Source of the DNA: a virus
Taxonomy: Duplodnaviria > Caudoviricetes
Length of the DNA stretch: 28,056 bases
IMG/VR virus record: IMGVR_UViG_3300005526_000023
Coordinates: 1-28,056 of that record
Reading direction: 5' to 3' (one strand)
Shown here: one piece after another, positions 10,527-27,934 of the stretch
Layout: each line of letters begins with the position of its first letter
How positions within the stretch are numbered: the stretch's first letter is position 1
Program-made: the position numbers and the translations under genes
Notes under the pieces: generated by a model
Databases searched by the model: none
What the model was told of the DNA's origin: nothing
The model's input: only the letters and a program-made list of their open reading frames with translations

Positions 10527-13283
10527 TTGACTGACGTCATCGTTGAAGCTGACGAGCTTCTTCATTACGGAACGCCCCGCCACTCCGGTCGTTACCCTTG
10601 GGGATCCGGAAAAACCCCGATGGAACGTGGCCGGAAAAGTTTCCTGGATCAGCATGCTGCACTCAAGCGGCAGGGCATGTCTGACCCTGAAATAGCAAGA
10701 GGACTCGGTCTCGGTTCCACGACCGATCTCAGGGCGAAGATCGCGATCGCCAAGGACGAGCATCGCAGGGGTCAGGCAACGCTTGCTCTTCGTCTTAGCG
10801 AGAAGGGCATGTCCAACGTTGCCATCGGTCGTCAGATGGGGCTCAACGAGTCATCCGTCCGAGCTCTTCTCGACCCGGCTAACTCGGCGAAGAGGAGCGT
10901 TCTCGACGCTACTTCTTCCTTCCTCAAGGACCAGGTTGATTCCGGCGGATACCTGGACATCGGCAAGGGAACCGAGAACTGGCGAGGAGTCAGCAGTACC
11001 AAGCTGGCCACCGCCGTGGCGATGCTGAAGCAGCAGGGCTACGTAGTTCACAACGTTCAGGTTCCTCAGCTAGGGACAACAGGTGGGAAGAAGACCACCG
11101 TCAAGGTCCTGGCTCCTCCGGGAACCACGTACGTAGACGTCAAGACTCATCCCGAGCTCATCAAGACTGTCGCCGCGACTAGCCCAGATCACGGCCGTAC
11201 CATCGAGAGCATAAAGCCCCCGGTGGCTGTTGACCCTAAGCGAGTCGGTGTCAGGTGGGCCGAGGATGGTGGAGGCAATGCCGATGGCATAATCTTCGTG
11301 CGGCCCGGAGTTCCCGATGTATCTCTCGGTGACTCGGCCTATGCTCAGGTCCGTATCAAGGTAGGGCCCGGTCACTACCTCAAGGGCATGGCCATGTACA
11401 AGGATGGCCTTCCTGCCGGAACCGATCTGCAGTTCAACACCAACAAGCGGCGGTCACCGAACAAGCTCGATGCGATGAAGACTGTCGGAGACGATCCGGT
11501 TAATCCTTTCGGTTCGGCCATCCGGCAGAAGACATGGACCGATAGCTCGGGCAAGAAGCACCAGTCTCCGATGAACATCGTGAACGAGCAAGGTGACTGG
11601 AGGGATTGGAGCAGGTCGCTCTCTTCCCAGGTTCTTTCCAAGCAGAACCCGCATCTTGCCAAGCGACAGCTCGATCTGGCTCTTCAGAGTAAGCGTGATG
11701 AGCTAGACGAGATCATGCGGCTGACTAACCCGGTGATCAAGCACAAGCTTCTCATGACGTTTGGTGACTCTGCTGATTCCGCGGCAGTCCACCTCAAGGC
11801 CGCAGCCATGCCGGGCCAGAAGACTCACGTCATCCTCCCGATCGAGGGAATGAGGGCAGATCAGATCTACGCTCCGAATTACCACAACGGAGAGAAGGTC
11901 GTACTGATCCGGCACCCTCATGGGGGAACGTTCGAGATCCCGGAACTCACGGTCAACAACCGGCATCCTCTGGCCAAGTCGACGATCGGGTCCGCTCCTG
12001 ATGCGGTAGGAATCCATCCTTCCGTAGCTAAGCGGCTATCTGGTGCCGACTTCGACGGTGACACGGTCCTGGTTATACCGAACAAGCGTGGCGACATCAG
12101 GACCACCGATTCGTTGGCTAGCCTCAACGACTTCGATCCTATCGTTCACTACGCCCCGCATGACGGGATGCGTACCATCGACGGCGGTATCTACCACGCT
12201 AAGACGGGATCGGTGGATTACGGCGGCAGGAATCCGAAGGGCCGGCCGAAGCAGCAGCAGATGGGCGATGTGTCCAACCTGATAACGGACATGACCATCA
12301 AGGGCGCAGATCGTTCCGAGATAGCCCGTGCTGTCAAGCATTCGATGGTAGTCATCGATTCCGAGAAGCACCACCTCGATGTCAAGCAGTCCTACGTCGA
12401 CAACGGCATAGCCCAGCTCAAGGCGAAGTACCAGGGTCGTACTACCAAGGGCCGTCTTGCTGGCGCATCGACCATCATCTCGAGGGCAGGATCCGAGATA
12501 CGGGTTCCTGAAAGAAGGCCCCGCCCCGCATCAAAGGGTGGTCCTATCGATCCGGTCACAGGCCAACGGATGTTCGAGGAAACGGGCACCACGAGCGTAG
12601 ATCGTAGGGGTCGCACCATCGTGAAGACCCGCCCCTCTCAAAGGCTGGCCGAAACGGCGGATGCCCGCACTCTCCTGAGTGATACCCCCTCACCCATGGA
12701 AGAGATCTATGCCGCCCACTCTAACGGCATGAAGGGGCTGGCTAACAGGGCCAGGCTTGCTGCTCTTCAGACAGGGCGCCTGACTTACTCCTCGTCTGCG
12801 GCAAAGGTGTACCGCAATGAGGTGGCTTCACTAACTGCCAAGCTGGGGGTAGCCAAGAAGAACGCCCCCCTCGAAAGACAAGCACAGTTGGTGGCCAACC
12901 AGATTGTTGCCGCCCGCCTCCACGATAACCCCCATATCAAAGAGGACCCTGATGCATACAAGAAGCTAAAGGGTACCTCACTGCAGCAGGCTCGTGATCG
13001 TGTCGGTGCTAAGAAGCAGATGATAGAGATCACAGCTAGGGAGTGGCACGCTATACAGTCAGGTGCTATCAGTACCAACCGCCTGTCTGAGATCATCGAT
13101 AATGCCAACATCGATGAGCTTAAGAAGCTAGCCACACCACGTACCACACAGGGCATGACACCAACGAAGATGGTACTGGCTAGGTCTAGGCTAGCCTCCG
13201 GCTACACACAAGCCGAGGTTGCCCAGTCCCTTGGCATCTCTGTCAGTACACTCAACGCTGCACTCAAGAGTGAGGGAGGATGA
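10527..13283 (+). CDS. Single-chain double-psi-beta-barrel (YonO-like) RNA polymerase with HTH domains
   Basis: LIRHPH (RxP motif, about 11910) followed by GIHP...LSGADFDGD (DFDGD at 12048-12062). HTH-like segments at both ends. TTG start with GGGAGG SD. Confidence 0.75.
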   Translation: MTDVIVEADELLHYGTPRHSGRYPWGSGKTPMERGRKSFLDQHAALKRQGMSDPEIARGLGLGSTTDLRAKIAIAKDEHRRGQATLALRLSEKGMSNVAIGRQMGLNESSVRALLDPANSAKRSVLDATSSFLKDQVDSGGYLDIGKGTENWRGVSSTKLATAVAMLKQQGYVVHNVQVPQLGTTGGKKTTVKVLAPPGTTYVDVKTHPELIKTVAATSPDHGRTIESIKPPVAVDPKRVGVRWAEDGGGNADGIIFVRPGVPDVSLGDSAYAQVRIKVGPGHYLKGMAMYKDGLPAGTDLQFNTNKRRSPNKLDAMKTVGDDPVNPFGSAIRQKTWTDSSGKKHQSPMNIVNEQGDWRDWSRSLSSQVLSKQNPHLAKRQLDLALQSKRDELDEIMRLTNPVIKHKLLMTFGDSADSAAVHLKAAAMPGQKTHVILPIEGMRADQIYAPNYHNGEKVVLIRHPHGGTFEIPELTVNNRHPLAKSTIGSAPDAVGIHPSVAKRLSGADFDGDTVLVIPNKRGDIRTTDSLASLNDFDPIVHYAPHDGMRTIDGGIYHAKTGSVDYGGRNPKGRPKQQQMGDVSNLITDMTIKGADRSEIARAVKHSMVVIDSEKHHLDVKQSYVDNGIAQLKAKYQGRTTKGRLAGASTIISRAGSEIRVPERRPRPASKGGPIDPVTGQRMFEETGTTSVDRRGRTIVKTRPSQRLAETADARTLLSDTPSPMEEIYAAHSNGMKGLANRARLAALQTGRLTYSSSAAKVYRNEVASLTAKLGVAKKNAPLERQAQLVANQIVAARLHDNPHIKEDPDAYKKLKGTSLQQARDRVGAKKQMIEITAREWHAIQSGAISTNRLSEIIDNANIDELKKLATPRTTQGMTPTKMVLARSRLASGYTQAEVAQSLGISVSTLNAALKSEGG

Positions 13284-13573
13284 ACATGACAGACGACAGT
13301 GAGTACATGCTGACCACCATCGACAATCCATGGAACCCCTACACTCACTGGGATGAGTGGCAGGCATACGACATACGTCATGGACACAACACGTCTGGCT
13401 TTCTTGCTCGTGTTGTTAGCTTTTCATTTGATTTGTCAGAGACAGATCAGGATTTGGCAATCAAGCAAGCGATTGACGAAATCGTAAAAGAAAATGTTTC
13501 CGGCATTTTCAAAAAGATTTCGCCAGATGAGGTACCTTCTCCCAAAATGCTGACGGGGGGAGGGGTCTCGTAG
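13280..13573 (+). CDS. Hypothetical phage protein (97 aa), last gene before the putative genome end
   Basis: SD GAGGGAGG, ATGA overlap with the RNAP stop, MLTTIDNPWNPY motif. Start could be 13286. Confidence 0.8.
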   Translation: MNMTDDSEYMLTTIDNPWNPYTHWDEWQAYDIRHGHNTSGFLARVVSFSFDLSETDQDLAIKQAIDEIVKENVSGIFKKISPDEVPSPKMLTGGGVS

Positions 13574-13665
13574 AAAGCACCCCCCTCCTGCATCGCCGAA
13601 CCCCTAAAAAATGCCCCGGGGGAAGAATCCGGGGGAAGTCGCCGGAAAAAGTCCGCCGGAAGTAG
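13555..13665. other. Putative cos / genome-end junction
   Basis: GGAGGGG..CCCCTCC inverted repeat, then CGCCGAACCCCT (13594-13605), an A-tract, and repeated CCGGGGGAAG and CGCCGGAA. Lies at the early-to-late module boundary. Confidence 0.55.
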
Positions 13666-13671
13666 GTCTGG

Positions 13672-14058
13672 ATGAAGAACGGGTTCCGTTTGCATGGGCT
13701 TCTCATCCTAGGAATCACTTTCATGGCCTACGGACTGGGCCTGATCTTCGGATACATCCCTTCGATCTCCAGAATTCTTTACGTAACTCCAGCGGAGGTC
13801 GGATGGACGTTTCTTTTGGTCGGCTCGGTCATGTTCGTAAGCCTGGTCAGTGACTTCGATCAAGCGCTTTATGCCATGGCAGCACTGATCTCATCTGCCT
13901 GGGCGACGATTCTTACCATCTTGGCACTAGGACCTAACGGCTGGGATGGAAGCCTGGCGTGGTGGTGTCTTGCTGTGCTGTGCGTTCTGCTGGCCGGAAG
14001 GAGCGATCCTCCAGAGCCGCTCAATCTTCCTCCTCCGCCAGAGGAGAAGCCGCCATGA
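13672..14058 (+). CDS. Membrane protein with about 4 TM helices (holin-like candidate)
   Basis: Four hydrophobic segments and a Pro-rich tail, located near the endolysin. Confidence 0.65.
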   Translation: MKNGFRLHGLLILGITFMAYGLGLIFGYIPSISRILYVTPAEVGWTFLLVGSVMFVSLVSDFDQALYAMAALISSAWATILTILALGPNGWDGSLAWWCLAVLCVLLAGRSDPPEPLNLPPPPEEKPP

Positions 14059-14303
14059 CCGCGGAATCGTTCGCAATAGACGTTGTCATCGTGACGATCG
14101 TTTCCGGTTTGTTCGCGATCGGCGCATGGATCAACGCGAAACGGGCCAAACGGCAAGAGTCTCTGCTGGCTCGGGAGAAGCAGGAAGCAGAAGCCTGGGT
14201 CCGTGCTCAGGAGATTTACCAGAAAGCTATCGCGACCCAGACTCAGCAGCTAGAACAAGCCAACCGCAGGATCATAGAGCTGGAACAAGGACGAAACGAC
14301 TGA
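14055..14303 (+). CDS. Small membrane protein, 1 TM plus coiled coil (holin/lysis accessory candidate)
   Basis: SD GAGGAG, ATGA overlap. FAIDVVIVTIVSGLFAIGAWI followed by a charged heptad-like helix. Confidence 0.7.
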   Translation: MTAESFAIDVVIVTIVSGLFAIGAWINAKRAKRQESLLAREKQEAEAWVRAQEIYQKAIATQTQQLEQANRRIIELEQGRND

Positions 14304-14447
14304 GATCACTCCTGCAGGGGGCGCCGGTGCGTTCCTTAATCGCTTATGAGTGGCGTAGCCCCCCCGCGTTGCAAGTAGGTGAAAAGTCTCTTCAGCCCGC
14401 GCCGAAGAGACGGGAACTCCCGGTGCCCCCGGCAGGAGTGATCTCGG
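14300..14447 (+). ncRNA. Candidate structured RNA (three-way junction)
   Basis: About 35-bp imperfect outer stem (14300-14336 with 14412-14447) enclosing two hairpins, filling the whole intergenic gap. Confidence 0.5.
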
Positions 14448-14460
14448 CTGAGTGATAACT

Positions 14461-14913
14461 ATGCCAGAAGTGGAGGTGAACATTACGGCCTCTCGCAAGA
14501 CTTCTCAAAATGAGCGTAGGACCAGAGGACGGCCTGCTACGACGCTCAAAGGCAGGGAAGATCAGCTTATCGCTCTGGCCGTGGATGTCGCCGAAGAGCA
14601 GCTGCTCAAGGGAACTGCCTCCGCTCAGGTTATCACTCACTACCTGAAACTCGGCACAACACGAGAAAGGCTTGAGCAAGAGCGGCTTACACGAGAGAAC
14701 GCTCTCTTGACTGCTAAGGTTGAAGCTCTGGCCTCTGCTCAAAGGGTCGAAGAACTCTACGCAAACGCTCTCAAGGCCATGAGAGTGTACTCAGGGAATG
14801 CTGAAAGCGATGACTACCCAGAGACTGAGATGTTATTCCGAGCTGGTCCGGATCGAGGGTTTCAGGGAGAGATTCCGGTATCTTCAGCTGCATTCGTCTA
14901 TAGGGGTCACTAG
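14461..14913 (+). CDS. Putative terminase small subunit / helical DNA-binding protein
   Basis: RGRPATT...EDQLIALAVDVAEEQL..GTASAQVITHYLKLG plus coiled coil, adjacent to the HNH gene and near the putative cos. Start uncertain (14452/14461). Its tail overlaps the HNH gene. Confidence 0.55.
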   Translation: MPEVEVNITASRKTSQNERRTRGRPATTLKGREDQLIALAVDVAEEQLLKGTASAQVITHYLKLGTTRERLEQERLTRENALLTAKVEALASAQRVEELYANALKAMRVYSGNAESDDYPETEMLFRAGPDRGFQGEIPVSSAAFVYRGH

Positions 14914-15226
14914 TTTCGGGTCTGACAGGTGGCTGAATCAGCAGTTCTACACCTCGCGTGAGTGGCGGCGGTGCCGTAGCGAGGTTATCCTGAGGGATTA
15001 CGGATGCGATCTGGGTGTTGAGGGCTATGAGATCTATGACAGGATAGCCATTCATCACCTGAATCCGATGACGGTGGACGACATCACCCACGGAAACGAG
15101 AGCATCTTCGACCCAGAGTTCCTGATAACCGTTTCCCATAGGACTCACAATGCTATTCACTTCGGTGACGAAAAGTTGTTGAGGGCTCCTCTCGTGGTAA
15201 GGCGCCCCGGCGACACTAAGCTATGG
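14798..15226 (+). CDS. HNH endonuclease domain (packaging-associated), no in-frame stop before the endolysin
   Basis: FYTSREWRRCRSEVILRDYGCDL...IHHLNP...LITVSHRTHNAIH. Domain ends at RRPGDTKLW. Confidence 0.85.
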
Positions 15227-15238
15227 TTAGGAGCCAGC

Positions 15239-16135
15239 ATGGTAGCAACAAGCACAATGATCTCGCCGAACAGGCGTTCCGGCCGGCGCGGATCCATCGT
15301 CTTCATCGGCATCCACACCATGGAGGCACCGGAAGGTTCCTCGACCGCCGAGAACGTCGCGGCCTACTTCGCGAAGCCGGCTACTCAGGCGTCGTCGCAC
15401 TGGTGTGTCGACAACAACTCGCGAGTTCGCTGCGTCAACGACGGTGACGAGGCCTGGACGATGCCGCCGGTGAACCCGAACTCGCTCAACATCGAACTGG
15501 CCGGCTACGCCAGTCAGGGCAGTTCCGGCTGGAACGACGCGTACTCGCGGTCCATGCTCGACAACGCCGCTGTGTGCGCCGCGGAGTGGTGCCGCAAGTA
15601 CTCGATCCCGCTCCGGCGCAACACGGACGCCCAGATCAGGGCTTACACCAAGGGGTTCGTCGGCCACGTCGACGTGAACCGGGTCTTCCGGTCGAGCGAT
15701 CACTACGACCCCGGCCCTGCCTTCCCGTGGACCGACTTCCTCAAAATGGTCGGCAAGTACCTCGGTTCCACGCCGCCTCCTTCCGGCGGCGGCGGAAAGC
15801 CGAAGCCGAACTGCACGGCGTTCCAGCGGGCCGTTCACACCACGGCCGACAACCAGTGGGGACCCGAGACCGACAAGTGCGGCGAGGCGCTTGAAGCGGC
15901 CTCTCCCTACGGCGGAAGGAGATATCCCTATGGTGTTCAGTACGCGCAGAAGGTCGTCGGGACGACACAGGATGGTAGCTGGGGTCCCGCATCGAACACC
16001 GCGCTCTACAACACCGTGGTCGCGGTTCAGAAGGCGCTGCTTGGGATGGGCTTCGACCCGAAGGGCGCCGACGGGGTCTGGGGAAACAACACCGATTCCG
16101 CATACAACTCTGCTCGTGCTGCCTGCCGTCTCTAG
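15239..16135 (+). CDS. Endolysin: N-acetylmuramoyl-L-alanine amidase (Amidase_2) with C-terminal peptidoglycan-binding repeats
   Basis: IHTME, SSHW, AW, NIELAG, GHVD, HYDPG Zn-amidase motifs. Pro/Gly linker. DNQWG, DGSWG and DGVWG repeats. Own SD AGGAG 6 nt before ATG 15239. Confidence 0.88.
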   Translation: MVATSTMISPNRRSGRRGSIVFIGIHTMEAPEGSSTAENVAAYFAKPATQASSHWCVDNNSRVRCVNDGDEAWTMPPVNPNSLNIELAGYASQGSSGWNDAYSRSMLDNAAVCAAEWCRKYSIPLRRNTDAQIRAYTKGFVGHVDVNRVFRSSDHYDPGPAFPWTDFLKMVGKYLGSTPPPSGGGGKPKPNCTAFQRAVHTTADNQWGPETDKCGEALEAASPYGGRRYPYGVQYAQKVVGTTQDGSWGPASNTALYNTVVAVQKALLGMGFDPKGADGVWGNNTDSAYNSARAACRL

Positions 16136-16143
16136 GAGCGCTG

Positions 16144-16836
16144 ATGACGGTCAACGACGACAGCATTCTCGATTCGACCAAGCACACCCTGGGTCTGGAT
16201 CCCGCAGTCGAGGTGTTCGATACCGATGTCATCACGCATCTCAATTCAGCCTTCGGCGTTTTGCGGCAGCTTGGTGTCGGCCCGGTCGAGCCCTTCGTAA
16301 TCTCGGACAGCACGCCGACGTGGGCGGACTTCAGCTCGGACATGGACCGGCTCCAGAGCGTGCGATCCTACGTCTATACGACAGTCCGGGTTCTGTTCGA
16401 CCCTCCGGCGACTTCGTTCGGGATCTCAGCCCTTACCGAGGTCAACAAAGAGCTGGCGTGGCGTCTTAACGTCGAGGGCGAAGACATCAATCCTCCGGTT
16501 CCGCCTCCTGACATGGAGCTTCCAGACCAGGTCTTCAAGCCGAAGCCCGTGAACCTCGGCTACATGCCTGTCGTCACTCCCGACATGACAGACGGGAACG
16601 TGTTCTACCTCACGCTGTACGGCGACTGCACGATCAACGCTCCGGTGAACGGCCTGGACGGCGGTCACATGACCATGGAGCTTACCTCAGCTGGCTACGC
16701 AGTCACCTGGGGAGCGGGATGGAACTGGGGCACCTACGGAGAGCCGGTTCTTACTCCTGACGGCACCGACATCATCAGCGCGGTCTTCAGGGAGACCTTC
16801 GGCGAGTGGCATGCCGGCTGGACTCCTGGCTTCTGA
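16144..16836 (+). CDS. Head-to-tail adaptor with C-terminal extension
   Basis: SILDSTKHTLG...LRQLGVGP...VLFDPP...LAWRL pattern, then a Pro linker and an extra beta-rich domain. SD AGGAG. Confidence 0.65.
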   Translation: MTVNDDSILDSTKHTLGLDPAVEVFDTDVITHLNSAFGVLRQLGVGPVEPFVISDSTPTWADFSSDMDRLQSVRSYVYTTVRVLFDPPATSFGISALTEVNKELAWRLNVEGEDINPPVPPPDMELPDQVFKPKPVNLGYMPVVTPDMTDGNVFYLTLYGDCTINAPVNGLDGGHMTMELTSAGYAVTWGAGWNWGTYGEPVLTPDGTDIISAVFRETFGEWHAGWTPGF

Positions 16837-17306: not shown

Positions 17307-20279
17307 GTGGCCACTTACCGAGGTGCAGCAGGAGCCGCGTCGAACAACTCGCTCAGTTCGCTTCCCGTCACCCTTCCTGCCGGATGGCAGCCAGGCGACT
17401 TCTGTATCATCGCCGGCGGCATCAACTCAGCTACCGCAACGTTCACCGATCCTGCTGGATGGACGCTGTCCGAGAAGGGAGCACTGTCTTCCGGAGGACT
17501 TTCGTACTTCTACTACTGGAGAATCCTTCAAGCCGGAGATACGGATCCAGTAGTCGTATCTTCCGTTTCCGGGCCTTACCGGTACATGTCTGCTGCTTAT
17601 ACTCCGGCGGCGGGCAGGAAGTTCCAGTTCGACGCTAACGGAGTGGCGGCCAACGTCACCACCGCCGGAACATCAATTACTCCTCCGTCCTGCTCCTCAA
17701 GGGCCGCCGGAAGCGTGTCAATCCTCGTCACGATGGGACGGGGAAGCGGCACTGTCACGCAGACAGCTTTCACCAACACTCCTACGACGAACTACACCAA
17801 CGGAAACCCCTTCTGGGGCCCGACCGGAATCAGCTACACCGGGCATCCGTTCATCGTGAACCAGCACGCCCTCAACGCCCAGAACATCTCGACGTTGAAC
17901 CCCAGTGCGGAGACAGTGGCTTCCACGCCAGCTAACACATATTTCATGTCTTCAATGCACTACAACGTCACTGAGGTTGCTGCTGAGAACTGGACAGCCG
18001 AAGGCGGCACTGACGCTACTCCCATCACCACCGGGAACAGCGGCGGCGCCTCAGGTGACGCGCTCGATTACGCAAGCATCGGAAGCGGTGCCACCCTGAA
18101 CTATGAGACCGCACAGAAAGCTCATGGTTCCCTGTCTGCTGCGGTTGCTGTTGGCGTAACGTCCACTACCTGTTACTTCGGTTGGTTGACGGCGCACGCC
18201 AGACTTTATGCAAGGTTCTATGTGCGCTTTCCTAGCGTTCCGACAGCGAACACGAGATTCTTCGGGTTCTACAGCAGCGGGCCGATCACGACAGTCGCCG
18301 CTTTCCTTCGGTACGCCACCACAGGCAAGCTGGTTGTCTGTGATTCGGCCTCGGCGACTCAGTGGACAAGCACGAACAACCTGCCGCTTAACCAGTGGAT
18401 CCGTATCGAATTCTGGGCTTACGCGAACGCTACTGCCGGGCAGTTCAAGATCAGCTATTACAACACTCCCGACAGCGACACCCCGACGGAGACGTTCACC
18501 AGTCCGGCGACTCTCAACCTCAGCACGACGATCGCTGCCGTGATAGCCGGGATTTCCATCGCGCAGGCGAGCGTGCCAAAGTTCTGGATAGACGATCTCG
18601 CATACAGCAATCTCGAGCAGCCGAACGTGGCGCTGTCTTCAGGTACGGTCGCGATAAGCCTGAAGAAGATGGGCGTAGCTGGCGCCGGTACCGGGAGCTC
18701 TGCGTTTTCCGGTGCTGTAGCGCTGAAGAAGATGAAGGTTGCCGGTTCAGGTGCTGGGAGCTCTGCATTTTCTGGTGCTATCGCGCTGAAGAAGATGCGA
18801 GTCGCGGGTTCAGCAGCGACCGTGCCTGTTTCATTTTCTGGTGCCATCAGTCTCAAGAAGATGCGAGTCGCGGGTTCAGCAGCGATCGTGCCTGTTTCAT
18901 TTTCTGGTGCCATCGCACTGAAGAAGATGGGCGTCTCCGGTTCAGGTGCCGGCAGTTCCGCATTTTCTGGCGCCGTGTCCATGAAGAAGATGGGCATTGC
19001 CGGAACGGGCTCGGTTTCCTCGATCAACAACGTTACTGTTAGCATCGCGCTCAAGAAGATGATCGTTTCCGGTACCGGTGCCGGAACATCGTCCGTAACT
19101 GGCGCGGTGAAACTCAAGAAGATGTCCGTGGCCGGCACAGGGTCGGTCATGGTTACGGTTTCAGGCTCCGTCAGCCTGAAGAAGATGGGTGTGTCGGCTA
19201 CCGCGACCGGCATATCCACTGCCTCCGGAGGCGTCACTCTTAAAAAGGGATCCATCTCAGGTTCGGCTGCCGGCATTTCGTCCGCCGCGGGTGCCGTCAA
19301 GCTGAAGAAGATGGGCATTTCCGGGTCGGCATCGGTAGCTGTCTCAGCCGCAGCAGCTGTCGTCATGAAGAAGATGGTCGTGTCGGGCGCCGTAACGTGC
19401 ACGACTGTCGCTTCTGGCGTTGTCGGCCTGAAGAAGTGCAGAATCTCTGGTTCAGGGACTGGGATAGCCACGGTCAGCGGTGGTCCCTCTCTGAAGAAGA
19501 TGGGCGTCTCCGGAGCAGTAGTTGTTATAACCGTCGGCATCGGCAACGTCTCCCTCAAGAAGATGGGAGTCTCGGGGACTGGGCCCGTGACTTCTGTCGT
19601 CTCAGGAGCTATCGTCCTGAAGAGGATGAGCGTTGCCGGTGCTGGCCAAGGAAGCTCGGCAACTGCCGGTGCCGTGTCCATGAAGAAGATGAAGATCCTC
19701 GGTAGCGGGGAGAAGCTCATCTTCGTGGATGGCTACGTGCGCATGAAGAAGATGGGCGTAGCTGGCACCGGTACCGGTAGTTCCGCGCTTTCTGGCACTG
19801 TGAATCTGAAGAAGATGTCGATTGCTGGCTCTGTCACCTGTAGATCCGCTACTACAGGAGCCATCAGCCTCAAGAAGATGTCTATCTTCGGATCCGGGGA
19901 GAAACTCAACTTCGTCATAGTCGATATACGCATGAAGAAGATGGGCATAGCTGGCAATGGCGCCGGCGTATCCACTCTCACAGGCGTAATCGTCTTGAAG
20001 AAGATGATCACCCTCGGAACTGGCCAGGGACTAGTTGTAGTCACCGGTAATGTGCGTCTGAAGAAGATGCGAGTATCCGGTTCCGTCCTGGTAACGTCTG
20101 TGGCGACGGGCTCTGTGTCTCTCGTCAAAATGGGAGTTTACGGAGAGGGTTCTGTAACGGAGGCGGAAGTCTCTGACTTCTCCGGCAACGTCGCCATGAA
20201 GAAGATGAAGGTTACTGGTCGTGGTGGACTTCTTGTCACCGGCCGTTCTTCTCAGTTGTTCATCTTCTCTCCACTATAA
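17307..20279 (+). CDS. Fibre-like virion protein: N-terminal beta-sandwich/lectin-like domains plus 25 x ~21-aa [LM]KKM repeats
   Basis: 990-aa ORF. YARFYVRF...WIRIE...FWIDDL lectin-like segment. Repeats counted from the translation. Confidence 0.75.
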   Translation: MATYRGAAGAASNNSLSSLPVTLPAGWQPGDFCIIAGGINSATATFTDPAGWTLSEKGALSSGGLSYFYYWRILQAGDTDPVVVSSVSGPYRYMSAAYTPAAGRKFQFDANGVAANVTTAGTSITPPSCSSRAAGSVSILVTMGRGSGTVTQTAFTNTPTTNYTNGNPFWGPTGISYTGHPFIVNQHALNAQNISTLNPSAETVASTPANTYFMSSMHYNVTEVAAENWTAEGGTDATPITTGNSGGASGDALDYASIGSGATLNYETAQKAHGSLSAAVAVGVTSTTCYFGWLTAHARLYARFYVRFPSVPTANTRFFGFYSSGPITTVAAFLRYATTGKLVVCDSASATQWTSTNNLPLNQWIRIEFWAYANATAGQFKISYYNTPDSDTPTETFTSPATLNLSTTIAAVIAGISIAQASVPKFWIDDLAYSNLEQPNVALSSGTVAISLKKMGVAGAGTGSSAFSGAVALKKMKVAGSGAGSSAFSGAIALKKMRVAGSAATVPVSFSGAISLKKMRVAGSAAIVPVSFSGAIALKKMGVSGSGAGSSAFSGAVSMKKMGIAGTGSVSSINNVTVSIALKKMIVSGTGAGTSSVTGAVKLKKMSVAGTGSVMVTVSGSVSLKKMGVSATATGISTASGGVTLKKGSISGSAAGISSAAGAVKLKKMGISGSASVAVSAAAAVVMKKMVVSGAVTCTTVASGVVGLKKCRISGSGTGIATVSGGPSLKKMGVSGAVVVITVGIGNVSLKKMGVSGTGPVTSVVSGAIVLKRMSVAGAGQGSSATAGAVSMKKMKILGSGEKLIFVDGYVRMKKMGVAGTGTGSSALSGTVNLKKMSIAGSVTCRSATTGAISLKKMSIFGSGEKLNFVIVDIRMKKMGIAGNGAGVSTLTGVIVLKKMITLGTGQGLVVVTGNVRLKKMRVSGSVLVTSVATGSVSLVKMGVYGEGSVTEAEVSDFSGNVAMKKMKVTGRGGLLVTGRSSQLFIFSPL
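18660..20220 (+). repeat. Coding tandem repeat, about 63-66 bp period (AAGAAGATG core)
   Basis: 25 degenerate units, including a near-identical 66-bp pair starting at 18789 and 18855. Confidence 0.9.
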
Positions 20280-20415
20280 CAAGCTTCGGCACCGTTCCCG
20301 CTGCGGAGCCGAGTCCTATCCCTTTACCTTAGGAGGCGATTCAGACAACAACACGAGCAAGACCGTTCTTCATCTAGGGGGAAGTACCCCAAACAAAGAA
20401 GTGGAGTACACGCAA

Positions 20416-21222
20416 GTGAAGAAGATCCTACTCGCTACCGCAGCGGCTGGCTTCATGGCACTGTCGATCGGTGTCCCGGCGGCTTCGGCTACGGTGACGC
20501 CGTCGCCGACTCCGACGCAGCAGCAGTTCCAGCACCCGCCGAGGGTGCAGCTGCTTCCGCAGCAGTTCGAGATCGCCCGGACCGATGTCGGTGCCCGTGA
20601 CCTCAACACCGTTCTCGCTCGCGGCCCGGTCCGCCTGACGGACGGCAACGACACGGTTCTCGGCGGCAACCTGTTCCGGCACATCCTGGACGACCGGGGC
20701 GTCAACTCGGTCAACCTCCGTCACAGCCCGCTGGGTCTCCCGCAGCTCTACCCGGGAACCTGCTCGGCGGCGCTTCTGCAGACGGTCGGCTGGACGTTCA
20801 ACGGCGGCCAGGGCATCTACCGCAACGAGACCGGCAGGGGTACGGCGATCGTGAGCCTGCTCGCCTCCGGGCACGTGCGGAACTTCAAGTCCTGGAGCTG
20901 GAACGACGGCTGGAACTACAGCCAGAACCTCAACTCGAACTACAGCCGTAACCTGCGGGTCTGCCCGCTCGACGGCCTGACCCGGGCGCAGGTCCTGGCC
21001 CAGATCATCCGGCACCTCCGCGGTCTCCCGACCGTGGTGCAGTTCGACCAGGTGTCGCTCAACGTCCAGGGACGTGGCGTGGCTTCCCAGCCGCGTCTCG
21101 TTCGCGACCCGTGCCAGTACCAGACCGACGGCCCGACCCTCGGCGCGTACCACGGCGACCCGACCCCGGCTCCGCGTAGCACCTGCTACGAGACCGCGGT
21201 TCCCATCGAGTCCGCTGCCTAA
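20416..21222 (+). CDS. Secreted protein with Sec signal peptide
   Basis: GTG 20416 after GGAG gives MKKILLATAAAGFMALSIGVPAASA, with an AxA cleavage site, followed by a TPSPTPT linker. Very high GC3. Confidence 0.75.
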   Translation: MKKILLATAAAGFMALSIGVPAASATVTPSPTPTQQQFQHPPRVQLLPQQFEIARTDVGARDLNTVLARGPVRLTDGNDTVLGGNLFRHILDDRGVNSVNLRHSPLGLPQLYPGTCSAALLQTVGWTFNGGQGIYRNETGRGTAIVSLLASGHVRNFKSWSWNDGWNYSQNLNSNYSRNLRVCPLDGLTRAQVLAQIIRHLRGLPTVVQFDQVSLNVQGRGVASQPRLVRDPCQYQTDGPTLGAYHGDPTPAPRSTCYETAVPIESAA

Positions 21223-21352: not shown

Positions 21353-22045
21353 GTGGCTACTCCTACGATGGAAGAGCGCCGGACGATGGCTAAATCCGGC
21401 GTCGCGATGCCTGATGGATCGTATTACATCAGGAATGCTGGTGAACTCGACGATGCGATTGCTGCGGTCGGCCGGGCTACGCCCAATGCCGGAGAAAGCG
21501 ACGTCGCTCGCCGCAATTCGGTTCGCCGGCACATCATGAAGAGGGCCCGAGCCCTTAACCTCGCAAGCAAGATCCCTGACACCTGGAACCCGGACGGATC
21601 ACTCAAGCATTCCGAGATCGACGGTCTCATGGACGAGATCGACACGTTCCTGGAGCACTTCGGCGTCAAGGGCATGAGGTGGGGCGTGCGCCGTCGCCGG
21701 ACTGGGTCTAGTCCCTCAAGTCGCCCTTCCGGTCCTGTTTCTCAAGACGCCGCCAGAGCCGCTAGGCTTCAGACCCGGGTTAGCCAGCACGGTACCAGGT
21801 CACTGACCAATGCCGAGCTCCAGACCCTGGTCACCCGTCTGAACCTGGAAACCCAGCATGGCAGGCTGGATCCGAAGAAGGTTAACGCCGGTCAGGCCTT
21901 CATCAGCGATGTCGGCAAGAACATCGTCAAGCAGGAGGCGGCGAACCTCGTTTCCCAGTACGGCCGTAAGGGTGCGGCCTGGCTTGCCGGGATCGCCGCG
22001 GCGAAGGTCTCCGGGATGATCATCAAGAAGGCTGTGGCAGGATGA
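21353..22045 (+). CDS. Probable internal virion/head protein with HFGVKGMRWGVRR motif
   Basis: SD GAGGAGG. N-terminal AMPDGSYYIRN...VRRHIMKRARAL domain, then LEHFGVKGMRWGVRRR and a basic C-terminal half. Start approximate. Confidence 0.65.
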   Translation: MATPTMEERRTMAKSGVAMPDGSYYIRNAGELDDAIAAVGRATPNAGESDVARRNSVRRHIMKRARALNLASKIPDTWNPDGSLKHSEIDGLMDEIDTFLEHFGVKGMRWGVRRRRTGSSPSSRPSGPVSQDAARAARLQTRVSQHGTRSLTNAELQTLVTRLNLETQHGRLDPKKVNAGQAFISDVGKNIVKQEAANLVSQYGRKGAAWLAGIAAAKVSGMIIKKAVAG

Positions 22046-22572
22046 GAACCGAAGATCTGAAACCAGGCACCGTCCTGGTCACCCGCTCGGAAGGATTCGC
22101 TGCCTGGTGGATCCGATTCGGTTCGGCGATCAGGAACAAGCCAAATCTCGGCAATCACGTCGCGGTCGTTCATCACCGGGACGCAGAAGGAACTTTGTGG
22201 GCGATTGAGGGAAAGCCCGGTGGCGTCGGATGGGTGGACGCTAAGGGCTATCTCGATAGCAAGTGGACCCACAGCAATGCTGATCAGCCGCTTACCGAAG
22301 AGCAGCGGTACTTGATCGCCGTGGCGATGGAAAAGATGCTCGGTACCGCCTACGACTGGGAGTCCATCGTCGCTGACGCTTTTACCAACCTGGGCATGCG
22401 CCTTCCTGGCTGGGATTCCAAGTGGAAGCACGACGAGGTTGCCGGACAGGTGGTCTGCAGCAGTGCGGCGGCGTACGCCTACGGCAGATCGAAAGCAAAG
22501 CATCCGCCCGGCGACAGAGGATGTCAGCCGTCTGATTGGACGGAATGGATCCTCACGCGAGGCTGGATGTGA
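22042..22572 (+). CDS. Permuted papain-like NlpC/P60 (YiiX/YebB-like) amidase/peptidase
   Basis: LKPGTVLV...NHVAV (His first)...YDW...VVCSSAAAYAY (Cys last). ATGA coupling. Confidence 0.75.
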   Translation: MRTEDLKPGTVLVTRSEGFAAWWIRFGSAIRNKPNLGNHVAVVHHRDAEGTLWAIEGKPGGVGWVDAKGYLDSKWTHSNADQPLTEEQRYLIAVAMEKMLGTAYDWESIVADAFTNLGMRLPGWDSKWKHDEVAGQVVCSSAAAYAYGRSKAKHPPGDRGCQPSDWTEWILTRGWM

Positions 22573-22612
22573 CGTAAGAAGGAACGACCAACGTACAAGG
22601 TAAGGAGAACTC

Positions 22613-22849
22613 ATGCCGGCTCAGAAGAAGGCCACGACGACCGACGAACCGAATCCGATGGCATTCGGCATCGCTGCCCTCAAGTGGATGGACGGCGCAT
22701 CGGAGCAGGTCGCTGAACTCCGGGAACAGGGGGGAGTCCCTACGCTTGGGATCGACGTGCACGCTCAGGATTACCTGACGCGGATCGGCAGGCTGCTCGA
22801 CGAGGCCAGGGCGGACCTCATACCGCAGCTTCCCGCCGAAGAGACGTAG
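22613..22849 (+). CDS. Hypothetical protein (78 aa)
   Basis: SD TAAGGAG. Confidence 0.7.
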   Translation: MPAQKKATTTDEPNPMAFGIAALKWMDGASEQVAELREQGGVPTLGIDVHAQDYLTRIGRLLDEARADLIPQLPAEET

Positions 22850-22883
22850 CGAGCATATCTTCTGTCGTTAAGAAGAGGTCAAC

Positions 22884-24629
22884 ATGAGTCTTTCGAACAC
22901 GGCTACGCCGAGATATTACGGCGAGTTTCGTGCCGCCGTTCTCCGTGGCGAGATTCCGGTCAACCTGGAAATCTCCATGGAGATGAACCGCATCGACATG
23001 CTCATCGAGGACCCGAACTTCTACTACGACAGCGATGCGATCGAGGGGTTCATCAAGTACTGCGAGAACGAGCTGACGCTAACTGATGGAAGCGACTTCC
23101 ATCTGCTCGACACGTTCAAGCTCTGGGCAGAATCCCTGCTCGCGTGGTTCTACTTCGTCGAGAGAAGCGTCTACGTTCCGAAACCGGACGGCCACGGCGG
23201 AAGTTACGTCCGTAAGGTCATCAAGAAGCGGCTGCGCAATAAGCAGTACCTGATCGTGGCTCGCGGTGCGGCAAAATCGATGTACGCGGAGTGCATTCAG
23301 AGCTACTTCCTGAACGTCGACGTTTCTACGACTCATCAAGTCACCACTGCTCCAACGATGAAGCAGGCCGAAGAGGTGATGTCGCCGTTCCGGACGGCTA
23401 TCACCAGGGCGAGGGGACCGCTGTTCCAGTTCCTCACGGAAGGCTCTCTTCAGAACACGACAGGGTCGAGAGCTCTCCGCGTTAAACTCGCCTCTACCAA
23501 GAAAGGCATCGAGAACTTCCTCACGGGATCGCTCCTTGAGGTCAGACCTATGTCCGTGGCCAAATTGCAAGGCTTGCGGCCTAAGGTCTCGACCATTGAC
23601 GAGTGGCTTTCCACGGACGTTCGTGAGGACGTTATTGGTGCTCTTGAACAGGGAGCATCGAAGCTTCCTGACTACATCATCGTGGCGACAAGCTCCGAAG
23701 GCACTGTCCGGAACGGCAGTGGCGATACAATCAAAATGGAGCTTCAGGACATCCTCAGGGGTGATTACCCGAACCCGCACGTTTCTATCTGGCATTACAA
23801 GCTTGACGAGCTGGAAGAGGTTGCTAACCCGGCGATGTGGCCGAAGGCCAATCCCAACCTCGGAAAGACTGTCAGTTACGAGACGTATCAGCTGGATGTC
23901 GAGCGAATGGAGAAAGCTCCTTCCACTCGTAACGATATTCTGGCCAAGCGGTTCGGGATTCCGATGGAAGGGTACACCTACTTCTTTACCTACGAAGAGA
24001 CCCTCCCCCATCGACGGCATGAGTTCTGGCGGATGCCTTGCTCCATGGGCGCTGACCTCTCTCAGGGAGACGACTTCACGGCTTTCACCTTCCTCTTCCC
24101 GCTTCCAAACGGGACGTTCGGAGTGAAGACGAGAAGCTATATTTCCAGTCTCACGATGATGAAGCTGCCTGGCGCAATGCGTGCCAAGTACGACGAGTTC
24201 ATCGAAGAAGGCAGTCTGCATGTTCTCGAGGGCGCGATCCTCGACATGATGGAGGTCTACGACGACCTGGAGCGTTTTATCCTGGCAAACGAGTATGAAG
24301 TTCGCTCGTTCGGTTACGACCCCTATAACGCAAAGGAGTTCGTGACCCGCTGGGAGCAGGAGAACGGTCCGTTCGGGATCGAGAAAGTCATACAGGGCGC
24401 CCGGACTGAATCGGTGCCCCTCGGGGAGCTTAAGACGCTTTCCGAAGAGCGGATGCTGGTTTTTGATCAGCTGCTCATGTCTTTCGCAATGGGCAACGCG
24501 ATCACGGTTGAAGACACGAACGGCAACAGGAAGCTCCTCAAGAAGCGTTACGAGGAGAAGATCGACAACGTCGCTGCGATGATGGACGCTTTCGTGGCGT
24601 TTAAGCTCAACAAGGATTCCTTCGACTAG
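22884..24629 (+). CDS. terL: Terminase large subunit
   Basis: Walker A VARGAAKS, Walker B TIDEW, WPKANPNLG, nuclease motifs GADLS, YDPYN, KIDNVAAMMDA. Located directly before the portal. Confidence 0.93.
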   Translation: MSLSNTATPRYYGEFRAAVLRGEIPVNLEISMEMNRIDMLIEDPNFYYDSDAIEGFIKYCENELTLTDGSDFHLLDTFKLWAESLLAWFYFVERSVYVPKPDGHGGSYVRKVIKKRLRNKQYLIVARGAAKSMYAECIQSYFLNVDVSTTHQVTTAPTMKQAEEVMSPFRTAITRARGPLFQFLTEGSLQNTTGSRALRVKLASTKKGIENFLTGSLLEVRPMSVAKLQGLRPKVSTIDEWLSTDVREDVIGALEQGASKLPDYIIVATSSEGTVRNGSGDTIKMELQDILRGDYPNPHVSIWHYKLDELEEVANPAMWPKANPNLGKTVSYETYQLDVERMEKAPSTRNDILAKRFGIPMEGYTYFFTYEETLPHRRHEFWRMPCSMGADLSQGDDFTAFTFLFPLPNGTFGVKTRSYISSLTMMKLPGAMRAKYDEFIEEGSLHVLEGAILDMMEVYDDLERFILANEYEVRSFGYDPYNAKEFVTRWEQENGPFGIEKVIQGARTESVPLGELKTLSEERMLVFDQLLMSFAMGNAITVEDTNGNRKLLKKRYEEKIDNVAAMMDAFVAFKLNKDSFD

Positions 24630-24639
24630 GGAAGGAGGG

Positions 24640-25941
24640 TTGGCATTGGGCAAACGCATGGACCGCCTCAGGCATGCCTGGAACGTGTTCTTTTCTGAAG
24701 AGCAGACTCGCGACTCTCGTGTTTCGTCAGTGGATCTTGGGCCGGCATATTCCTGGCGTTCAGACCGTCCTCGATATTTGTACACGAACGAGCGAACGAT
24801 CGTCTCCTCGGTCTACACCAGACTCGCGATCGACACCGCTGCTGTCCCGGTTCTTCATGTGCGGCTGGACGAGAACGGCCAGTACCAGGAAGAGATCGAT
24901 AGCGGCCTGAACAACTGCCTGACCATCGAGGCGAACCTCGACCAGGCGGCGACGATGTTCCGTCAGGATCTGGCGCAGACGCTGTTCGATCAAGGCGTAG
25001 CCGCCATTCTTCCGGTCGACACGACGCTCAACCCGCTGGTAACCGGCGGATACGACATCTCGACCATGCGGATCGGCAAGGTTGTTCAGTGGTATCCGAA
25101 GCATGTCACGGTCCGGGCCTACAACCAGAACAGGGGGATTCCGGAAGACGTAACCGTCCCGAAAGAGATGGTCGCGATTGTCGAGAATCCTCTCTACTCG
25201 GTCATGAACGAACCGAACTCAACGCTTCAGCGTCTTCTCAGGAAGCTTTCACTTCTCGACACCGTGGACGAGCAGAGCGCTTCTGGGAAGCTGGACATCA
25301 TCATTCAGCTGCCTTACGTCATTAAGACTGAAACGAGGCGTGCTGAAGCGCAGAAACGGCTGAGGGAGATCGAGTTCCAGCTGAAGGGCTCGCAGTACGG
25401 AATCGCTTACACGGATGGTTCCGAGAGGATCACTCAGCTGAACCGGCCTGCTGAGAACAATCTGATGGGCCAGGTTGAGTACTTGACGAAGATGCTTTAC
25501 AGTCAACTCGGCCTTACCGAAGAAGTGATGAACGGCACGGCGGACGAAGCGGCGATGATCAACTACTACAACCGCTCCGTCGAACCGATTCTCACTGCCA
25601 TGACCGAAGCCATGACCAGAACGTTCCTGACCAGAACAGCAAGGACGCAGGGTCAGGCCGTCATCTATCTCCGTGATCCGTTTAAGCTCGTCCCAGTATC
25701 GGTACTTGCGGAGATCGCCGACAAACTCACCAGGAACGAGATCCTTTCGTCCAACGAAGTCCGCAGCATCATCGGCTTCAAGCCATCCAGCGACCCTAAC
25801 GCTGACAAACTCCAGAACAAGAACATCCCCCAGCAGGCTCCAGTGTCGAAGCCGATCGGAAGAGTGCCATCTCAAGCATTGCCATTGATGCCGCACGTCC
25901 CGTCGATACCACGAGGAGCAAACAGTCAAAATGGAACCTGA
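24640..25941 (+). CDS. Portal protein (HK97-like)
   Basis: Between terminase and protease-capsid genes, 433 aa, ILSSNEVRSIIG motif. TTG start with AAGGAGG SD. Confidence 0.88.
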   Translation: MALGKRMDRLRHAWNVFFSEEQTRDSRVSSVDLGPAYSWRSDRPRYLYTNERTIVSSVYTRLAIDTAAVPVLHVRLDENGQYQEEIDSGLNNCLTIEANLDQAATMFRQDLAQTLFDQGVAAILPVDTTLNPLVTGGYDISTMRIGKVVQWYPKHVTVRAYNQNRGIPEDVTVPKEMVAIVENPLYSVMNEPNSTLQRLLRKLSLLDTVDEQSASGKLDIIIQLPYVIKTETRRAEAQKRLREIEFQLKGSQYGIAYTDGSERITQLNRPAENNLMGQVEYLTKMLYSQLGLTEEVMNGTADEAAMINYYNRSVEPILTAMTEAMTRTFLTRTARTQGQAVIYLRDPFKLVPVSVLAEIADKLTRNEILSSNEVRSIIGFKPSSDPNADKLQNKNIPQQAPVSKPIGRVPSQALPLMPHVPSIPRGANSQNGT

Positions 25942-27934
25942 CTTCACCGGGTACTGCACGAGGACCGGCATCAGGTGCACTGACGGCCGGACCATCAAGC
26001 ATCACGCCTTCAAGGGCAACGACAACACCACCGTTCCGCTCGTGTGGCAGCACCTGCACGACTCGCCTGAGAACGTCCTGGGTCACGTCGTTCTGCACAG
26101 CATCGGCGACGGTGTTCGTGCCGAGGGCTACTTCAACGACACCGTGCCCGCCACGCAGGCCAAGGCGCTCGTCAAGCACGGCGACATCAAGATGCTGTCG
26201 ATTTACGCCAACCAGCTCATCCAGCAGGCGATGGAGGTCGTTCACGGAGTCATCCGTGAGGTGTCTCTGGTCCTGTCGGGAGCCAACCCCGGCGCGTACA
26301 TCGACAACGTCAACCTCGCGCACGGCGACGGCATCACTCCGCTGGCGGATGAGGCGATCATCTACAGCGAGGCGACGATCCAGTTCGTCGAGCTTTCGCC
26401 GCCGGTTCCGGCCCCTTCCCTTCCGCCCAAGCCAGCTCTGGCCCACGCGGTTGCCGGTCTTCCGGCCCTGATGCCGCCACCGGCGGTCGCTCAGGCTTCC
26501 GATGCCAACCCGACCGTCGCCGATGTCATCGCCGGCTTCACCGAGCAGCAGAGGGAAGTCGTCTACGCCCTCATCGGTGCGGCCATGAGCCAGTCCGACC
26601 CGTCCGGCACAAACCCCACCGATCCGAAGGGCGACCCGCAAGTGACCCACCGCAACGTTTTCGACCAGAGCGGCGGCAACGCACCCGCCGGGCCGGTTCT
26701 CTCACACGCCGACGTGCAGGGCATCTTCGACGACGCCCGCAAGCGCGGCTCGCTCAAGGACGCGGTCGAGGCGTACGCCCTGACGCACGGGATCCAGAAC
26801 ATCGACCTCCTGTTCCCCGACGCGACGGCTGTCGACGCCACCCCGGCGTGGATCACCCGCCGTCAGGCATGGGTCGCCAACGTTCTCGGCAACACGCACC
26901 ACACTCCGTTCTCCAGGATCAAGAGCCGGTTCGCGGACATCACGATGGACGAGGCTCGTGCCCGGGGTTACGTCAAGGGCGCCCTGAAGCGCGAGGAGTT
27001 CTTCGGCATCACGACGAGGACGACCACGCCGAAGACCGTCTACAAGAAGCAGAAGCTCGACCGCGACGACATCCTCGACATCACCGAGTTCTCGGTCGTC
27101 GACTGGATGAAGACCGAGATGCGGGTCATGCTGGACGAGGAGATCGCCCGCGCGATCCTCGTCGGCGACGGCCGCGACGTGGCGGACCCCGACAAGATCA
27201 ACGAGAACAACATCCGGCCGATCCTCACCGACGCCGACATGTTCGTCACCCGCGTGAACATCAACCTGTCCGACGCCTCCAGCAACAACGAGGAGATCGT
27301 CGACGGCATCATGTCCGGGATGCAGTACTTCCAGGGCACCGGTGTTCCGACCCTCTACACGGCCCGGTCCTGGGTTACCAAGATGCTCCTGACCAAGGAC
27401 ACGCTCGGCCGCCGGCTGCACAGCTCCGTCGCGGAGCTGGCTGACGCCATGGGTGTCGGCGGGATCGTCATGGTCGACGTTCTCGAGTCGATGAAGGACA
27501 CGTTGATCGGAATCATCGTCAACCTGCAGGACTACTCCGTCGGCACGGACCGCGGCGGCGAGGTCACCTTCTTCGATGACTTTGACATCGACTACAACCA
27601 GTTCAAGTACCTCTACGAGACGCGTCTTTCCGGCGCCCTCGTGCAGTACAAGTCCGCGATCGTGGTCGGTCTCACCACCGCCACCATGCTCGGCTCGCCG
27701 ACGGCTCCGACCTTCGTCAAGGCCACCGGTGTCGTGACCATCCCGACCATGGCCAACGTGACCTACGTGTCCGTCAACGACCAGACCGGCGTCGAAAGCG
27801 CCGCCCTGACCGCGGGTCCGCAGACCGCGATTGCTGCCGGCGCGTCGATCCACATCCGGGCCAAGGCCGCCTCCGGCTACTCCTTCGCCGACAACGCGTC
27901 CAACAACTGGACGTTCCAGCGTCCCGCCAGCTGA
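25931..27934 (+). CDS. Prohead protease-scaffold-major capsid fusion with C-terminal Ig-like extension
   Basis: HK97-type protease motifs VPLVWQH, LSIYA, IREVSLVLSGANPGA. Pro-rich linker. Capsid region EIARAILVGDG...YETRLSGAL. Very high GC3. Confidence 0.88.
   Translation: MEPDFTGYCTRTGIRCTDGRTIKHHAFKGNDNTTVPLVWQHLHDSPENVLGHVVLHSIGDGVRAEGYFNDTVPATQAKALVKHGDIKMLSIYANQLIQQAMEVVHGVIREVSLVLSGANPGAYIDNVNLAHGDGITPLADEAIIYSEATIQFVELSPPVPAPSLPPKPALAHAVAGLPALMPPPAVAQASDANPTVADVIAGFTEQQREVVYALIGAAMSQSDPSGTNPTDPKGDPQVTHRNVFDQSGGNAPAGPVLSHADVQGIFDDARKRGSLKDAVEAYALTHGIQNIDLLFPDATAVDATPAWITRRQAWVANVLGNTHHTPFSRIKSRFADITMDEARARGYVKGALKREEFFGITTRTTTPKTVYKKQKLDRDDILDITEFSVVDWMKTEMRVMLDEEIARAILVGDGRDVADPDKINENNIRPILTDADMFVTRVNINLSDASSNNEEIVDGIMSGMQYFQGTGVPTLYTARSWVTKMLLTKDTLGRRLHSSVAELADAMGVGGIVMVDVLESMKDTLIGIIVNLQDYSVGTDRGGEVTFFDDFDIDYNQFKYLYETRLSGALVQYKSAIVVGLTTATMLGSPTAPTFVKATGVVTIPTMANVTYVSVNDQTGVESAALTAGPQTAIAAGASIHIRAKAASGYSFADNASNNWTFQRPAS

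Follow-up and report, generated by a model that had tools for sequence, protein, structure and literature searches.

The closest described systems in which a prohead protease acts on proteins loaded into the phage head are those of T4 and of the phiKZ group. In T4, IPI-III and Alt bear a capsid targeting sequence (CTS) that the prohead protease gp21 processes (PMC9026906, PMC5694885). In phiKZ, 201phi2-1 and SPN3US, head proteolysis (gp175, gp245) occurs at S/A-x-E and A-x-E sites and a virion RNA polymerase (vRNAP) is packaged (PMC5694885, PMC10052503); in 201phi2-1, the protease also trims the beta subunit of the vRNAP. With these systems we compare a stretch of 28,056 nucleotides (the window) from the Caudoviricetes record IMGVR_UViG_3300005526_000023, which encodes a 918-amino-acid (aa) RNA polymerase (RNAP)-like protein, a two-module DUF7211 protein and a capsid precursor with a fused prohead protease. 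All three contain Leu-x-His (L-x-H) motifs. What we observe is the set of motifs and how well they are conserved, the fused architecture of the precursor and, in the RNAP model, a two-barrel fold; our reading builds on these. The fused protease likely cuts after hydrophobic-x-His, and this site, together with a conserved Gly/Trp/basic peptide in a DUF7211 or an RNAP form, probably marks the predicted RNAP and variable basic proteins for loading into the prohead; we hold this with fair, not high, confidence.

The original prediction for this DNA had listed seven L-x-H histidine codons, and all seven are present where it placed them. The His codon at 10563 is residue 13 of the RNAP-like protein, in the context DELLH-YGTPRHSGRYPWG. 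Those at 21608 (LKH-S) and 21656 (FLEH-FGVKGMRWG) belong to the DUF7211 protein, and those at 26321 (LAH-G), 26444 (LAH-A), 26705 (LSH-A) and 26786 (LTH-G) to the capsid precursor. The genes, sites and tags of these proteins, and the portal gene, promoter-like element and cos site described below, all lie on the plus strand.

Hydrophobic-x-His sites in the capsid precursor

The capsid precursor (25931..27934, 667 aa) is a fusion of a protease, a low-confidence spacer (scaffold), an HK97-fold capsid and a C-terminal beta-rich domain, as judged from PHROG 3270 (E 2e-214) and the structure model; its matches to PF04586 (E 0.0056) and PF05065 fall below the Pfam cut-offs. In the prohead protease domain (25931..26305), His41 (26051), Ser90 (26198) and Glu110 are invariant in 60/60 sequences and, by analogy with the HK97-type protease family, would be the catalytic residues. 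The window's spacer of 173 aa, with 5 His and 13 Leu, holds 4 L-x-H motifs (p=0.0001, 20,000 shuffles). A fifth L-x-H of this gene, LGH at 26084, was omitted from the original prediction and is located within the folded protease domain.

Homologues show the same bias. Among the query and its 120 best homologues (121 sequences), L-x-H occurs 357 times in the spacers against 36.8 expected, and only 3 times against 11.8 expected in the capsid domain. Because close homologues are not independent, 226 full-length precursors were cut to 33 at <55% identity. In these 33, L-x-H ranks first among the gapped pairs of the spacers (113 vs 13.6 expected) and I-x-H third, and the Leu-His enrichment is specific to this spacing, with counts of 4, 3 and 15 at three other spacings. 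Taken together, [LI]-x-H occurs 164 times, compared with a mean of 27 and a maximum of 43 in 1000 shuffles. Each spacer carries 4-12 hydrophobic-x-His sites, variable in number and place, and the residue following the histidine (P1', with His as P1) is mainly Ala (69), Ser (60), Gly (41), Asn (19) or Asp (16).

Conservation of the motif across homologues, a check originally proposed, holds for three of the four spacer sites. His131 of LAH-G, at the end of the protease domain (26315..26326), is present in 121/121 sequences, and its segment 116-138 has a predicted local distance difference test score (pLDDT) <50. His259 of LSH-A (26699..26710), at the start of a predicted helix (259-272), is found in 119/121, with Ser/Thr before it in 121/121 and Asp at +2 in 109/121. 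His286 of LTH-G (26780..26791), also 119/121, is the last hydrophobic-x-His before the N-arm and the likely maturation cut, giving GIQNID. The fourth, His172 of LAH-A in the variable spacer (26438..26449; segment 156-191 pLDDT <50), is not position-conserved, and His is absent from the four commonest residues of its column in the 121 sequences. In addition, VTH-R at 26648 directly precedes the conserved NVF motif of the spacer. This may be a degenerate site, because MKH-N or MRH-N stands there in many relatives.

The position of the last site agrees with the capsid fold. In 33/33 precursors the final His upstream of the L-F-P motif of the N-arm is a hydrophobic-x-His, at a distance of 7 to 32 residues. 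The HK97 fold spans residues 293-584 of the capsid model, which superimposes on 1OHG with Z 13.1 and rmsd 3.8 over 221 aligned residues (model 302-583). In this pairing, HK97 residue 124 corresponds to model residue 302, and the HK97 chain has 280 residues with its end at 383. The HK97 cut, which we take to be at residue 104, consistent with such a chain, would fall at model residue ~282, within ~5 residues of His286 when extrapolated with an ungapped offset. The mature capsid of Lactococcus phage Nocturne116 ORF18 is observed to start at residue 243 (PMC13595954), which maps ~10 residues past His286 by ungapped extrapolation from a weak alignment (E 0.004). In the outgroup Javan18, which has a separate protease, the N-terminal extension of the capsid has no His. 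The proposal that the prohead protease cuts after L-x-H thus finds strong comparative support in the capsid precursor, in the broader form hydrophobic-x-His; the sites in the tags, described below, differ from it at P1'.

The portal protein (24640..25941, PF04860) carries an N-terminal LRH-AWN (His 24673), likewise absent from the original prediction. The position is His in 31/39 distinct relatives and Asn, Arg, Lys or Gln in the other 8, and its surroundings are basic, not acidic. The portal is a possible further substrate of the protease.

Tags on the RNA polymerase-like protein and on putative basic cargo

The RNAP-like protein (10527..13283) matches PHROG 4291, the family of phage 1706 ORF75, over its length (bits 1218), is 38-53% identical to cultured relatives, and is matched by 250 phage records. 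Pfam matches place helix-turn-helix (HTH) modules at both ends. The AlphaFold2 model has a mean pLDDT of 81, and the best Foldseek matches are QDE-1 and the phage proteins gp64 (8F72, E 3.8e-8) and gp96 (8H2M, E 4.8e-5). The catalytic loop DFDGD (D508-D512, 12048..12062) is invariant in 65/65 aligned homologues, as are R462 and P464 of an R-x-P located 44 residues before DxDGD. According to the model, the protein folds as a single-chain two-barrel RNAP, and RNA synthesis is predicted. The family was previously proposed to be an RNAP, with DxDGD and the terminal HTHs described (Koert et al., bioRxiv 10.1101/842583; Ruprich-Robert and Thuriaux, PMC2919709); the available parts of these two papers do not mention the N-terminal tag, virion location or processing. 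A search by sequence found no solved structure of a family member.

After an acidic leader, the RNAP-like protein has a tag composed of L-x-H followed by YG-xxxx-SGRYPWGSG (10557..10610). His-Tyr-Gly and SGRY.WG are found in 116/121 homologues, the remaining 5 being shorter gene calls, and hydrophobic-x-His is kept in 20/20 RNAP-holding genomes at identities down to 36%. Residues 1-36 have pLDDT <50 and are predicted to be unfolded. Because the tag is invariant yet predicted unfolded, it would be a linear motif read by a partner.

A related tag is found in the DUF7211 protein (21353..22045; PF23847 E 9.6e-13, 47.7 bits against a gathering score of 27), whose GTG start at 21353 is preceded by an AGGAGG ribosome site. 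The protein consists of a DUF6582-like N-domain, an LKH-S junction at the end of that domain (21602..21613), an acidic stretch, the tag FLEH-FGVKGMRWG (21629..21700) and a basic body. By ESM features the N-domain scores 0.92 against DUF6582 clusters, which we take as a lead, and the tag and body weakly resemble phage 1706 ORF7 (two-sequence E 6e-6 and 9e-6). The junction is LKH-G in locus L090 and MNH-S in 12 gut-phage loci, and the body is preceded by a tag in 31/31 homologues. The RNAP tag and DUF7211 have in common L-x-H-[YF]-G and a later W-G.

DUF7211 is above cut-off in 33/34 related genomes or records, with up to seven copies in one. In the exception (G012), two small proteins next to the head genes, unrelated to the RNAP, bear the RNAP-form tag (L168 1343-1885 and 3882-4694). 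Therefore, the RNAP-form tag appears to be a movable module. We also took a census of all retrieved loci with patterns that use only the residues after the putative cut and are thus blind to the histidine; the patterns derive from known tags, and close relatives are among the contexts. Among DUF7211-type tags, P1 is His in 147/149 distinct contexts (Glu in 1) and P3 is Leu in 137/149. Among RNAP-type tags, P1 is His in 71/73, and the two exceptions are tags that do possess L-x-H but were matched in a shifted register. At P1', Tyr (49), His (48) and Phe (44) occupy the DUF7211 tags and Tyr 62/73 of the RNAP tags.

The tagged bodies form 51 clusters and are net basic in 141/142 cases (median +0.10 per residue). 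Their leaders are acidic, and in 141/146 measured contexts an in-frame start codon is no more than 30 residues away from the tag. Domains were sought in 61 of 95 cluster representatives of at least 130 aa: GNAT domains were found in 5 and a papain-fold deamidase domain in 1 (loci L131, L012, L203, L053, L213 and L027), and two DUF7211 stretches in 8. A 2H phosphoesterase domain was found in 2/20 other cargo proteins. ReqiPoco6 gp15 (L001 14111-15727) and Gravy gp12 (L227 5628-7193) combine such a domain with an internal DUF7211 tag; these are possible packaged counter-defence enzymes. The tag matched 134/50,697 phage records, mostly next to terminase and portal, and the host genera among the matches listed are those of this capsid type or supercluster. 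Two candidate observations were dropped from this survey. Distant tblastn matches, considered as a lineage with another P1, are ordinary Streptococcus capsids, and two genomes that seemed to have tags without the RNAP (G013, listed as 100% complete, and G004) both lack the entire replication arm.

These results refine the targeting signal originally proposed, an acidic leader followed by H-[YF]-G...W-G. A tag shared by the RNAP and unrelated proteins fits such a role. However, the residues before P4 are variable and acidic and the invariant residues come after His, so that the conserved information runs from P3 to ~12 residues past His, outside the leader; a reporter fused to the leader alone would likely fail for this reason. 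Of the predicted mature N-termini, GIQNID is more secure than YGTPRH and FGVKGM, because the tags have Tyr, His or Phe after the histidine and the spacer sites have Ala, Ser, Gly, Asn or Asp.

Genome setting and a promoter-like element

The window covers 28 kb of a longer virus record of 46 kb (G001), to which it is 100% identical. From its gene order and homologues, the phage belongs to a supercluster that unites Lactococcus phage 1706, Faecalibacterium phage Oengus and the actinobacteriophage clusters AM, AU, AW, BI, CC and DJ (Koert et al., bioRxiv 10.1101/842583). VRR-Nuc, exonuclease, the 918-aa protein and a last small gene close the replication arm. Next comes the cos site, and beyond it lie lysis, head-associated and head genes. 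The cos site, CGCCGAACC (13594..13602), consists of 9 bases that are absent between both ends of the identical record; the ends of cultured relatives are similar 9-mers, and the overhang is likely 3'. The RNAP gene is the second-last at the right end of the virion DNA. No tRNA genes were found in the window.

An element of the form TCGCR-N6-ACR-N5-TATRATR (9608..9633, by pattern match) lies ahead of the operon of VRR-Nuc, exonuclease, RNAP and last gene. The pattern was tuned after the copy at 9608-9633 had been seen. TCGCA-N6-ACA-N5-TATAAT-like elements recur across these genomes, and four further copies are present in the central region of the same phage before small genes (L167 3540-8038). 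The element is found ≤400 bp upstream of the VRR-Nuc gene in 32/62 relatives and in 0/245 coding-sequence control windows, a lenient control. In 16/16 loci, the interval from the last gene to the first structural gene has no copy, so that the element does not explain late transcription at that place. A 43-base motif containing TATAAT has been published for cluster DJ (PMC10868162). We regard the phage RNAP as a candidate reader of the element. Reading by the phage enzyme would make its own operon dependent on a packaged copy, whereas reading by the host RNAP would not require one.

Some neighbouring genes deserve mention. An HNH endonuclease and an amidase endolysin share one open frame (14798-16135) with no intervening stop. 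They are separate genes in the relatives whose annotation was viewed, and the endolysin may start internally on its own. A 990-aa protein (17307-20279), whose gene adjoins that of a PHROG 3758 virion protein, contains many ~22-residue repeats built on G.V.LKKM.V.G.G and has no Pfam or PHROG match. The open reading frame 20221-21222, among the head-associated genes, encodes a signal-peptide-like stretch and has no family match.

Proposed loading pathway, alternatives and comparison with known systems

We propose the following pathway, the steps of which differ in certainty. Very likely, the precursor would assemble the prohead, the protease would cut the 4-12 His sites of the spacer, and the mature capsid would begin at ~Gly287. 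The tagged proteins would then, quite probably, dock inside the prohead through P3 to ~P12', most simply on the protease or scaffold lining it. Slightly favoured in our view is a third step, in which the acidic leaders would be removed at His and proteins with several tags, for example the 21353 protein and 1706 ORF7, would be split into their modules. Whether the RNAP and the basic cargo, which in relatives includes GNAT, 2H-phosphoesterase and similar enzymes, would stay with the DNA and be ejected is evenly balanced. That the ejected RNAP would start transcription at TCGCA-ACA-TATAAT promoters, one of them driving its own operon, is somewhat doubtful, and an injected early RNAP is the least certain step. 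In general, a T4-like head-cargo system with a His-specific protease is likely.

Several observations weigh against this reading, and they are considered here with the explanations that they favour. The tags carry bulky Tyr, His or Phe at P1' in place of the small residues of the spacer sites. Moreover, the conserved part of the tag follows the histidine, extends ~12 residues past it and would remain on the cargo, the opposite of the removed T4 CTS. An unlikely alternative is that the spacer sites are cut while the tags act as mimics of the substrate that are cut slowly or not at all; cargo and RNAP would dock through them to the protease or scaffold, and the RNAP would be packed with its leader. 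In T4, Asp at CTS position 10 blocks processing and still allows targeting (PMC9026906), and the vRNAP beta subunit of SPN3US is packed unprocessed. Cutting nevertheless fits the tags at polyprotein module junctions, which often come directly after a spacer-type site (LKH-S, MNH-S), as in the proteins with two DUF7211 stretches (8/61) and in 1706 ORF7. No lineage with another P1, in which protease and tag could be seen to co-vary, occurs in 22 genomes, 33 divergent capsids and 222 tag contexts. A complex prediction of precursor 1-580 with RNAP 1-45 scored 0.00 and favours neither side.

Other unfavourable points concern the RNAP. Residues 1-58 do not match DUF7211, and the RNAPs of relatives match it at 11-15 bits over model positions 2-14, below cut-off. 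The RNAP gene is in a replication-arm operon away from the head genes, behind a TATAAT-type element that a host sigma factor could read. L-x-H is depleted in the RNAP body (62 vs 191), which was considered as avoidance of the protease and rejected because a non-virion helicase and exonuclease are equally depleted (observed/expected after dereplication 0.46, 0.60 and 0.45 for RNAP body, helicase and exonuclease). For virion location, the evidence is one indirect label: in GenBank EU081845 / NC_010576, phage 1706 ORF75 (the RNAP) and ORF7, a homologue of the DUF7211 protein with two tags and five [LI]-x-H sites, are called 'structural protein'. The small untagged ORF62 and ORF71 bear this label too, and that of ReqiPoco6 was copied by similarity. 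The 1706 labels are said to stem from virion mass spectrometry by Garneau et al. in 2008. In paper searches, for which most subscription papers were outside the full-text scope, we found no virion proteomics and no RNAP activity data for the family, no observation of cutting, packing or ejection for any member, and no paper on DUF7211, His-specific prohead cleavage or virion packaging of this RNAP; DUF7211, PF23847 and the tag spellings gave no full-text match, and the Pfam name gives no function. The operon, the unspecific L-x-H depletion and the label on untagged ORFs would suit an RNAP that is a purely non-virion, YonO-like enzyme made from a host-read promoter, with real capsid sites, an N-terminal peptide serving another interaction and incidental virion copies. 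We consider this quite unlikely, as phages of Actinobacteria through to those of Firmicutes carry the tag unchanged and it is also found on the small non-RNAP proteins adjoining the head genes of G012. In addition, the TCGCA box is 14 bases before TATAAT, unlike the usual 17 of a sigma-70 -35 box.

The histidines themselves might instead belong to a structural or metal-binding repeat, such as a helix cap or scaffold contact, that is never cut. His259 and His286 flank predicted helices, and His259, within an S/T-x-x-D capping-box context, may be conserved as a helix cap, a further point against cleavage there; the literature search also found no paper on a prohead protease cutting after His. 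This explanation is highly improbable, since many sites are in low-confidence, length-variable segments, float in number and place, and the last one is located where mature HK97-fold capsids start.

Loading of tagged proteins by a His-specific protease system thus stays our preferred reading. A bolder version of it would describe a very large family of small siphoviruses with cos ends that infect Actinobacteria and Firmicutes and use a His-specific head protease and a portable tag, which loads a compact, promoter-reading single-chain RNAP and swappable effector enzymes into the head; the injected RNAP would start infection from TCGCA-ACA-TATAAT promoters, including that of its own gene, and the packaged copy would be indispensable. 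We put this forward tentatively and consider it somewhat less likely than not in full. If true, loading would assign a function to DUF7211. It would do the same for the 'HTH protein' that is the signature of a lineage represented by about 250 records of cultured phages and by thousands or more of metagenomic relatives, including dairy, gut and SEA-PHAGES isolates. It would also extend a T4-like cargo system and a head-packed RNAP to a small siphovirus, beyond T4-type and jumbo phages. In addition, it would point to a pool of host-modifying enzymes that are injected and offer a tag with which proteins could be delivered to Gram-positive hosts. Our literature search found no prohead protease with His at P1. 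These ideas can be tested directly in cultured phages.

How does this locus compare with the known systems? Like the T4 CTS, the tag is a single short N-terminal signal shared by basic proteins that are variable and otherwise unrelated, and the cargo varies between relatives. It also contains the hydrophobic-x-P1 site of the head precursors (Leu/Ile at P3 and His at P1 in spacer and tags), with a different P1'. Unlike in T4, P1 is His and not the Glu of I/L-x-E, the conserved peptide follows the putative cut and would be retained where the T4 CTS is a 10-residue removed piece, and tags also occur inside polyproteins. The phage is not a T4-type myovirus but belongs to cos siphoviruses of 42-95 kb with a protease-capsid fusion.

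With the phiKZ group, the locus shares redundant sites in acidic propeptides and a two-barrel RNAP, carried there in the head. A hydrophobic P3, a fixed P1, a small P1' and redundant sites are common to the proteases of T4, phiKZ and SPN3US, where P1 is Glu, and to the one studied here. The vRNAPs of the phiKZ group are multi-subunit, come from jumbo myoviruses and are experimentally proven, whereas the present protein is a 918-aa single chain with HTH ends and P1 His, known from sequence.

The 10527 protein is itself a member of the phage 1706 ORF75 / PHROG 4291 family. It has the single-chain two-barrel fold of the Thermus phage P23-45 type (gp64, gp96) and of SPbeta YonO. P23-45 gp96 forms part of the tape-measure protein and is delivered with it, and YonO is a late, non-virion enzyme; to our knowledge, neither has the tag of the present RNAP. 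The capsid precursor resembles ORF18 of Lactococcus phage Nocturne116 (PDB 9SZ9; PMC13595954) in combining protease, scaffold and capsid in one protein. Unlike the cuts proposed here, that of ORF18 is placed after Arg242, and ORF18 is a weak sequence relative (E 0.004). The locus may work like the T4 CTS/gp21 system without being a member of it, given its His at P1, a tag that would be retained and its protease-capsid fusion.

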